A stretch of 64,000 nt of DNA, from the IMG/VR virus record IMGVR_UViG_3300007511_000003, positions 96,001 through 160,000 of that record. One strand, 5' to 3'. Made by a program: the position numbers and the translations under genes. Source of the DNA: a virus. Numbering within the stretch: position 1 is the stretch's first letter; each line of letters opens with the position of its first letter. Below, in pieces: positions 20,635 to 23,300 of this stretch. Under the pieces are notes generated by a model, which saw only the letters and a list, made by a program, of their open reading frames with translations, was not told the origin of the DNA and did not search any database.

Positions 20635-20722
20635 TGGAGCCAGGAACAGGATTCGAACCTGCGTTGGGTTTTCGCCGTCGGCTTACAAAGCCGCTCCTCT
20701 CGGCCGCTGGAGGGACCCTGGC
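20635..20722 (-). tRNA. tRNA-Thr(UGU)-like with atypical long variable region
   Basis: Acceptor GCCAGGG/TCCTGGC + T-CCA, D stem CCTC/GAGG, anticodon loop TTTGTAA, 15-nt variable region, T arm GCAGG-TTCGAAT-CCTGT. Confidence 0.7.
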
Positions 20723-20745: not shown

Positions 20746-20819
20746 TGGACCTGCGTTTGGGTAGAACCAACAACCTAAGGCTTAACAGGCCCTCACTTTA
20801 CCAACCAAACTACTGTGGA
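20746..20819 (-). pseudogene. Degenerate tRNA-Asn(GUU)
   Basis: Anticodon arm AGGGC-CTGTTAA-GCCTT and 3' CCA are present, but the acceptor and T stems are mispaired. Confidence 0.55.
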
Positions 20820-20825
20820 TTAAGA

Positions 20826-20933
20826 TGGCACGTAGTAGGAATCGAACCTACGATTCTCGCTTAAACGGTTGATCAGTCCGCTATCGGCGAGCACAGACTC
20901 TGCCTGCGCGTTTACCACTCCGCCATACGTGCC
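20826..20933 (-). ncRNA. tRNA-like RNA with 5-nt anticodon loop and ~40-nt extra arm
   Basis: Acceptor GGCACGTA/TACGTGCC, D arm GCG-GAGTGGTAAA-CGC, perfect T arm GTAGG-TTCGATT-CCTAC, extra arm CTCGC...GCGAG. Confidence 0.7.
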
Positions 20934-20941
20934 ACAAAGAA

Positions 20942-21198
20942 AATATGGTGTGCTATTACGCCAAAGAGGAGTTCACCCTTACCATCTCTGGGGTGGCTTA
21001 CTACTTCACCAAGTGGCGCCCGTCGCCTATCCCTCATAGCAGGTGGTCCTGCAGAGCTCTTTATTTGGATGCCGCCACCCAAACGTTAGCCTAGAGGTTT
21101 CCCTGGTTCATGCCCTTGCAATCCAGGTACGTACTACAACTAACGGCCTTTGCCTCACTCTTTAAAGGATGGCTGCTTCTAAGCCAACCTCCCATACC
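20942..21198 (-). ncRNA. Structured RNA containing a split copy of the 23S rRNA GTPase-associated centre (H43-H44)
   Basis: GGAGGTTGGCTTAGAAGCAGCCATCCTTTAAAGAGTG (21192-21156) and GCGTAATAGCACAC (20961-20948), closed by GGTATGG/CCATATT. Confidence 0.8.
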
Positions 21199-21209
21199 TT
21201 ATAGTATAT

Positions 21210-23212: not shown

Positions 23213-23300
23213 TGGTAGGGCTGGAGGGAGTTGAACCCACGGTAGGTCGCCCTACGTCGGTTTTCAAGACCGGTACCTTTAACCACTCGGCCACCCTTCC
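23213..23300 (-). pseudogene. Chimeric tRNA-Ser(UGA) with non-matching 3' acceptor strand
   Basis: Ser-type 5' half, loop CTTGAAA and variable arm GTAGG-GCGA-CCTAC, but 5' GGAAGGG cannot pair with 3' CAGCCCT. Confidence 0.7.

Follow-up and report, generated by a model that had tools for sequence, protein, structure and literature searches.

The minus strand of the window analysed here, a 64,000-nt (64-kb) stretch covering positions 96,001 to 160,000 of the IMG/VR record IMGVR_UViG_3300007511_000003, carries at positions 20940-21200 two short blocks that correspond to nucleotides 1055-1090 and 1091-1104 of bacterial 23S rRNA, within the GTPase-associated centre (GAC) of the ribosome. The viral record is 168.9 kb long, is estimated to be ~65% complete and encodes T4-like topoisomerase II genes. 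Read 5' to 3' on the minus strand, the element consists of AAGGUAUGG, then G-AGGUUGGCUUAGAAGCAGCCAUCCU-UUAAA-GAGU, an insert of 195 nt, GCGUAAUAGC-ACA and finally CCAUAUUUU. The 5' block GTTGGCTTAGAAGCAGCCATCCTTTAAAGAGT (32 nt, 21157-21188) and the 3' block GCGTAATAGCACAC (14 nt, 20948-20961) are each present as a single copy in the 64-kb window, for which shuffling gives a chance expectation of 0.00 matches for the former (100 shuffles, 3 mismatches allowed) and 0.02 for the latter. When the two blocks are joined they are colinear with E. coli 23S 1055-1104 with zero indels and are identical to it at 45 of 50 positions; identity to an Acinetobacter 23S reference, which was taken from a contaminated phage record, is 46/50. 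A first-pass annotation of this sequence had recognised 23S nucleotides of about 1055-1104 split by roughly 195 nt, as well as a private closing helix standing in for H42, and both claims hold: the insert is exactly 195 nt long (21156-20962), and the helix GGUAUGG/CCAUAUU is present and can be extended to 9 bp. The features of the locus are the following.

20940-21200, minus strand: whole GAC-mimic RNA gene, ~261 nt including the 9-bp closing helix, with the architecture of the family
21192-21200, minus strand: 5' strand of closing helix P1, AAGGUAUGG, which replaces rRNA H42 and pairs with 20940-20948; its final two G are positions 1054-1055
21166-21190, minus strand: H43-like hairpin (23S 1057-1081) with loop UUAGAAGCA; A1067 is window position 21180
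21161-21165, minus strand: junction UUAAA (1082-1086) with the covarying tertiary pair U1082-A1086
21157-21160, minus strand: GAGU (G1087-U1090), forming the 5' side of lower H44, conserved in the family
20962-21156, minus strand: 195-nt insert between U1090 and G1091; an insert is present in every evaluable member
21153-21156, minus strand: GAGG, the 5' strand of the insert base helix Pi, pairing with CCUC at 20966-20969
21003-21152, minus strand: variable multi-hairpin domain of the insert (consensus-constrained fold)
20970-21002, minus strand: conserved insert arm, with AGU/ACU, Pb GCC/GGU, internal loop ACC/UAAG and Pc CCA-GAGA-UGG
20966-20969, minus strand: CCUC, the 3' strand of Pi
20962-20965, minus strand: UUUG linker from the insert to G1091
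20949-20961, minus strand: H44 hairpin GC-GUAAUA-GC plus ACA (G1091-A1103); A1095 is 20957 and A1101 is 20951
20940-20948, minus strand: 3' strand of P1, CCAUAUUUU
20827-20932, minus strand: tRNA-like RNA, 8 nt downstream of the element (Rfam tRNA, 43.7 bits)

Folded as a single sequence, the window element has a z-score of -1.19 and a minimum-free-energy structure that differs from the comparative consensus, and a promoter/terminator scan returned nothing exceeding the shuffled background. In a fold constrained by the consensus, the variable domain of the insert forms the stems CGUUAGU/GCUAACG, CCUGG/CCAGG, UUUGGGUG/CAUCCAAA and GCAGG/CCUGC, and every stem listed for the insert in the first-pass annotation appears in this fold. 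That annotation had also allowed that a known Rfam family might already cover the RNA; none in Rfam 15 does so on the window, even at E<=10, and the window together with eight relatives matched no RNA family, intron or ribozyme at gathering or permissive thresholds. The sole Rfam matches to the mimic are sub-threshold hits to LSU rRNA at the position of the GAC, positions 1081-1156 of the bacterial LSU model aligning the 5' block of the relatives below threshold. A 23S gene or gene fragment was rejected as an identity for the window element: its flanks are not rRNA, its blocks are split, its insert has no rRNA similarity and the LSU matches stay below threshold.

A family of phage RNAs sharing the GAC fold

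A search for both blocks separated by a variable gap, as the first-pass annotation had suggested, recovered at least 174 distinct relatives with one shared architecture. Six of the loci come from cultured phages and a small number from MAG contigs, and the remainder are on IMG/VR contigs, which were scanned with the pattern of the 3' block (at least 117 stretches) and with that of the 5' block (at least 116 stretches). Among the IMG/VR matches listed, the 5' block lies upstream in 111 of the 122 loci recovered through the 3' block, and all 76 evaluable new loci recovered through the 5' block alone continue with an insert of at least 47 nt and then the 3' block, an uninterrupted variant being found in 0/76. 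In cultured phages, blastn found the same split layout in the Pseudomonas phages Astolliot, Milchi, UNO-G1W1 and pf16, in Aeromonas phage 4_4572 and in Xanthomonas phage XacN1, and reading of the sequences places it also in the giant phages Cronobacter GAP32 and Serratia BF, whose hosts are enterobacteria. The 5' block also matches Pectobacterium CBB, Xanthomonas XbC2 and several Erwinia phages.

The 3' pattern occurs at 88 places in 185,579 bacterial and archaeal species (one genome each), but only 31 of these prove to be genuine members, most of them located on MAG contigs of phage size, so the family is essentially restricted to phages. Complete records among the 50 carriers examined range from 47 to 433 kb, and the carriers must span several lineages, since a T4-type capsid gene is present in only 9 of the 28 complete ones; they are phages of many bacterial phyla, Proteobacteria, Firmicutes and Bacteroidota among them. 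The family is a large and apparently undescribed group of phage RNAs, no description of it having been found in the full-text literature, a body that leaves out most subscription journals. All membership features of the family are present in the window: the 5' block (23S 1055-1090 with the UUAGAAGCA loop and the UUAAAG/CUAAGG turn, window 21157-21191), the 3' block (GCGUARNAGCACAC with A at 1101, window 20948-20961), the insert with its linker, P1 and the tRNA setting.

Covariation was assessed in 174 distinct sequences from among the matches listed, with shuffled partners as the control. In this set the eight pairs of P1 all covary, each being formed in 73-100% of members against 38-91% after shuffling and showing as many as 6 pair types; covariation extends to the two pairs at the foot of H43, 1057-1081 (3 pair types) and 1058-1080 (6 pair types); and the noncanonical U1060/U1078 and R1056/A1103 of rRNA are retained. 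The pair 1082-1086, long known as a tertiary pair of the GAC, is UA in 87 members, CG in 63 and AU in 9 of the same listed set, and is formed in 93% against 62% after shuffling. As an independent check, an alignment of ten relatives was folded with RNAalifold, which gave P1, H43 and upper H44 and, within the insert, the base helix and the conserved arm, with compensatory changes in 21 of 35 pairs.

Nucleotide frequencies were read, for each set, solely from the block that had played no part in its recovery. Among the matches listed, G1087 (94%), A1088 (94%), G1089 (92%) and U1090 (94%) are conserved on one side of the insert and G1093 (100%), U1094 (100%), A1095 (94%), A1098 (100%) and A1101 (98%) on the other; A1067 is A in 86% and G in 11% of members. 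Near-invariant positions in these matches are U1060, G1062-C1064, U1065, U1066, A1069, G1071, C1072, A1073, A1077, A1084, A1085, G1087, A1088, G1093, U1094 and A1098, and position 1097 varies freely, here and in rRNA alike. The CTCAC to CACAC change that the first-pass annotation had singled out in the 3' block is real and is what gives the family its A1101; with this change from U1101, U1090-A1101 becomes a Watson-Crick pair, and the two are paired in 96% of the matches listed. The same annotation had argued for selection on structure rather than a stray piece of rRNA, and the covariation of P1, H43, 1082-1086 and the insert base helix, together with the conserved A1067 and A1095 loops, agrees with it: the comparative evidence supports an RNA whose GAC fold is maintained by selection.

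If the element were instead without function, whether as a captured rRNA fragment, the remnant of an attachment site or an assembly chimera, its strong identity to rRNA would be in keeping, and one phage record, that of Paenibacillus phage Pd_22F (L007, MZ092003.1 82476-85512), does contain a true contiguous 23S; that copy, which lies in an unannotated stretch and stems either from the host or from an assembly artefact, falls outside the family. However, the split layout recurs on well over 100 independent contigs and in complete genomes of cultured phages, compensatory covariation is extensive, and the family signatures are independent of host rRNA. On these alignments we give a non-functional origin a negligible probability and regard it as effectively refuted. 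The signatures, G1089, U1090, A1101, the insert and the UUUG linker, do not vary with the host, and the corresponding sequence in the 23S of E. coli and Acinetobacter is GAAAG...CUCAC. A constant insertion site, A1101 and linker whatever the host suggests that the element arose once and then spread from phage to phage, and speaks against repeated capture of host rRNA.

Compared with its ribosomal counterpart, the GAC of bacterial 23S rRNA (H42-H44, E. coli 1051-1108, the 58-nt uL11/thiostrepton domain), the mimic is colinear over 1055-1104 and has in common with it the H43 and H44 hairpins, U1060/U1078, R1056/A1103, the covarying 1082-1086 pair and A1067, A1095 and A1098. It differs in being a stand-alone phage gene in which H42 is swapped for an unrelated covarying helix, in always carrying an insert of 45-369 nt at 1090/1091 and a UUUG linker (among the matches listed), in having A1101 instead of U1101, and, in some members, in a second insertion after A1077.

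The insert

The insert always falls between U1090 and G1091 and is 45-369 nt long, with a median of 134, among the matches listed. It opens straight into the covarying 3-4-bp helix Pi, whose pairs 1 to 4 are formed in 97, 94, 89 and 70% of the 174 listed sequences against 58, 53, 43 and 39% after shuffling, and it ends in a U-rich linker; of 56 listed members recovered through the 5' block alone, 42 have UUUG here and 7 have UUUA. The variable domain between these elements aligns poorly from one relative to another. The 3' arm, by contrast with the variable domain, is conserved in a group of at least 40 distinct members to which the window element belongs, with the order Pb (3 bp), ACC/UAAG, Pc (3 bp) and tetraloop and with a purine-rich junction adjoining; Pb and Pc covary in the alignment of the relatives, and the Pc loop, GAGA in the window, is mostly GNRA in the relatives and UAAC or UAAA in some. 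A second group of inserts, found in XacN1, GAP32, BF and others, has ends of the GAGUGGAAG...CCCUUAGAG type. Judged from these alignments, the inserts are not random spacers but hold modules that are conserved within subfamilies.

The loci with this second architecture are L006 (XacN1) 1500-1750, L294 (GAP32) and L295 (BF) at ~1195-1460, and L021, L105, L044, L037 and L079; in them GAG(U/A)GGAAG-like sequence comes after a 3-bp helix at the start of the insert, and at its end (A/G)CC(C/G)UNAGAG precedes the helix and UUUG. A loop motif, (G)AAGGGCAU(C), occurs in the window at ~21108-21122 on the minus strand and in the inserts of L087, L182, L042, L260 and L291; its hairpin belongs to the variable domain of those members most closely related to the window element, and L087 and L182 have a second copy just past the insert base helix. 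In about eight members (L090, L112, L051, L109, L076, L052, L032 and L086) a second insertion of 16 to ~70 nt, a hairpin, is found in the 3' strand of H43 right after A1077. Such insertions, added to the main insert, indicate that the GAC module tolerates expansion at two sites.

Several identities for the insert were tried and rejected. As an echo of 23S domain VI (SRL, H96, H97) the window insert scores 23 against 23S, where shuffles score 21.4 +/- 2.4, and the 174 inserts from the matches listed have a mean score against 23S of 19.40 compared with 19.46 when shuffled, with matches that do not cluster along the rRNA; no similarity to 23S or 16S rRNA was found in the insert. A hammerhead-like junction and an 11-nt tetraloop receptor were considered by eye in the conserved arm, where the required core nucleotides are absent.

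The boundaries of the insert had led the first-pass annotation to point to group I splice rules, and like a group I intron in an rRNA or phage gene the insert is structured, breaks an rRNA-like helix, starts after a U and has G as its last base. This hint did not survive. Unlike such introns, the insert has no P3-P9 core, can be as short as 45 nt, which is too small for such a core, and is conserved only within subfamilies, with its own covarying base helix and the UUUG linker; neither the window (E<=10) nor eight relatives (E<=1) gave a match to the group I model (RF00028). Because every evaluable member has an insert at this site, of 45-369 nt, and the window and eight relatives match no intron or ribozyme model, a group I intron is excluded. 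The insert might still be removed in some other way, by splicing or by other processing, to leave a GAC mimic of ~65 nt, contiguous or in two pieces, and it is true that without the insert GAGU and GCGUAAUAGC rejoin exactly as in many bacterial 23S rRNAs. We nevertheless consider removal highly improbable, given that inserts go down to 45 nt and 0/76 loci recovered through the 5' block alone are free of an insert (both among the matches listed), that group I, group II and ribozyme models have no match at permissive E-values in the window and eight relatives, and that insert modules are conserved within subfamilies.

Linkage to tRNA genes

The first-pass annotation had located the element inside a tRNA array, and same-strand tRNA genes or tRNA-like RNAs do lie on both of its flanks in the window. 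Among the matches listed, a tRNA gene is found within 2 kb of 96 of 149 unique viral elements, and of the tRNA genes within this distance of the 149 elements 455/455 are on the strand of the element. In 58 of the 149 listed elements the start or end of a tRNA is no more than 25 nt from the conserved core, often 6-25 nt, a gap that leaves space for a P1 strand only. The window element has the end of a small ORF 9 nt upstream of it, and the tRNA-like RNA at 20827-20932 downstream of it has intact acceptor, D and T arms, with a 49-nt insertion replacing the anticodon and variable region and no call by ARAGORN; RNase P processing of this RNA could define the 3' end of the mimic. Since the tRNAs are so close and on the same strand, release of the mimic from a tRNA precursor by tRNA-processing enzymes seems the most likely route of its biogenesis.

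Other tRNA-related sequences in the window are irregular as well. Two further degenerate tRNA-like sequences are at 20755-20812 (minus strand, 24.7 bits) and 23216-23297 (minus strand, 33.7 bits; both Rfam tRNA), and ARAGORN calls neither; in the second the acceptor stem is mispaired and the variable arm is long. A long variable arm, unusual among tRNAs for Thr, is also present in the 88-nt tRNA-Thr(UGU) at 20635-20722 on the minus strand.

In its setting the mimic resembles phage tRNAs and the GOLLD and ROOL RNAs, which are likewise co-oriented in the tRNA arrays of large phages and probably co-processed. It is unrelated to GOLLD and ROOL in sequence and structure, Rfam giving no match to either in the window and eight relatives, and it differs from them in having a recognisable cellular model, the GAC. 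The tight and strictly co-oriented linkage raises the possibility that the RNA acts on tRNAs themselves, serving the maturation, protection or delivery of phage tRNAs or acting as a scaffold for their processing and stability, and in the RelA complex A1067 does contact the A/R tRNA by stacking on its elbow (PMC5829649). Yet 53 of 149 listed elements, those of GAP32, BF and XacN1 for example, have no tRNA within 2 kb, and a generic scaffold would not need near-perfect GAC loops and a tertiary pair, and so we think a tRNA-directed role quite improbable.

Protein-coding neighbours are far less constant. No conserved neighbouring protein family was found across 142 loci among the matches listed, the largest cluster being a CCA-adding-enzyme-like protein that is present at 9 of these 142 and confined to a single clade. 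A CCA-adding-enzyme-like ORF of ~488 aa lies 110 nt downstream of the element in L099, L100, L018 and relatives. A uL11 gene is absent from the window's record and from all 50 carrier records (0/50), as is a RelA/SpoT homologue from the 50 carriers (0/50), which implies that any protein partner would be derived from the host. ORFs resembling bL12 were detected in 7/50 carriers at E<=0.001 and in 3/50 above the Pfam cut-off; the latter are in carriers G044, G039 and G028, G044 being of the provirus class and its ORF possibly a host gene.

The absence of uL11 and the unconserved neighbours led us to reject a ribosomal-protein leader as the identity of the window element. Leaders of the L10, L1/L11 and L20 operons belong to cellular r-protein genes, which they regulate in cis from the 5' UTR, and they reproduce only a local protein site, usually with weak identity. 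The mimic would be like them an RNA copy, off the ribosome, of a site at which a protein binds rRNA, but it adjoins no r-protein gene, sits among tRNAs and copies a whole domain including the factor-contacting loops, and the Rfam leader families have no match to it in the window and eight relatives.

A possible decoy of the GAC

A ribosome-mimic decoy that would sequester uL11, blunt the stringent response or absorb toxins had been put forward in the first-pass annotation. The reading that we favour, with moderate confidence that is evenly balanced against doubt, is that the mimic is a free-standing decoy of the GAC that would bind host uL11. It would be a stable noncoding RNA of large phages, transcribed and processed with the phage tRNAs, whose conserved ends would fold as the three-dimensional GAC module, with H43, H44, the 1082-1086 turn and a private helix in place of H42, while a lineage-variable domain would grow out of the 5' strand of H44. 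Once bound to host uL11 off the ribosome, this module would expose its A1067 and A1095 loops and so draw GAC-docking molecules away from ribosomes, and the possible outcomes include a loss of RelA activation and the capture of factors or toxins. In crystal structures of L11 bound to RNA, the C-terminal domain of uL11 recognises the tertiary fold of the GAC, and on the ribosome the ligands that touch A1067 and A1095 are the N-terminal domain of uL11, EF-G, EF-Tu, thiopeptides, the tRNA elbow in the RelA complex and the toxin Tre23. For an isolated "thiostrepton domain" oligoribonucleotide, Munishkin and Wool (1997) reportedly observed binding to EF-G. A1067 and A1095 are dispensable for folding and yet are conserved, which suggests that the ligand of interest contacts these exposed adenines.

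Several considerations count against a decoy. Folded alone the sequence is unremarkable, and A1067 gives way to G in 11% of the listed members. The universal insert lies within H44, beside bases that make the tertiary contacts of the GAC; ribosomes are already assembled, so that the removal of free uL11 would have to take effect within one lytic cycle; and against catalytic ligands a decoy would be a poor defence unless its binding were tight. If the RNA, made in abundance and co-processed with tRNAs, joined host uL11 in an off-ribosome "mini stalk base", then it could trap host stress or immune effectors directed at the GAC (for instance Tre23-like rRNA ADP-ribosyltransferases) or RelA and the translational GTPases, with the insert tuning or adding specificity, a variant that we find tentative and rather unlikely. 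On this variant, if true, it would be the first decoy of an rRNA domain and would carry the counter-defence logic of spare tRNAs over to the ribosome.

A related reading takes the RNA to be an anti-defence pseudo-substrate which, alone or with uL11, would absorb toxins that attack the GAC and so spare the ribosomes, making it the rRNA counterpart of the "spare" tRNAs by which phages counter tRNA-cutting defences. We know of no anti-phage defence system that targets the GAC. The bacterial ADP-ribosyltransferase toxin Tre23 offers a precedent, since it modifies H44 nucleotides 1095-1098 and blocks EF-G (PMC8661411), but Tre23 is a T6SS effector. That the H44 loop is almost invariant in the phage family, that the carriers infect many bacterial phyla and that the RNA occurs in tRNA arrays, which recent papers treat as anti-defence loci, would all fit with such a role. 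On the other hand, enzymes turn over, and a stoichiometric pseudo-substrate would protect poorly against them. On balance an anti-defence role seems to us unlikely.

If confirmed, the decoy would represent a new class of viral noncoding RNA, a free-standing and strongly conserved mimic of an active centre of the ribosome. It would suggest that the uL11/GAC site is contested in the conflict between phage and host, through the stringent response, the control of translation factors or toxins directed at rRNA. Carriers exist in culture (pf16, Astolliot, UNO-G1W1, 4_4572, XacN1, GAP32 and BF), and RNA structural biology could draw on at least 170 natural variants of the GAC fold, in which expansion is tolerated at two sites. 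An entry in an RNA-family database would also stop the calling of small ORFs across the mimic, as has happened in UNO-G1W1 and Milchi. In their GenBank records, small "hypothetical protein" ORFs are annotated on the strand opposite to the RNA gene (L002 1572-1679 and L005 1530-1661, respectively), and these are probably false gene calls.
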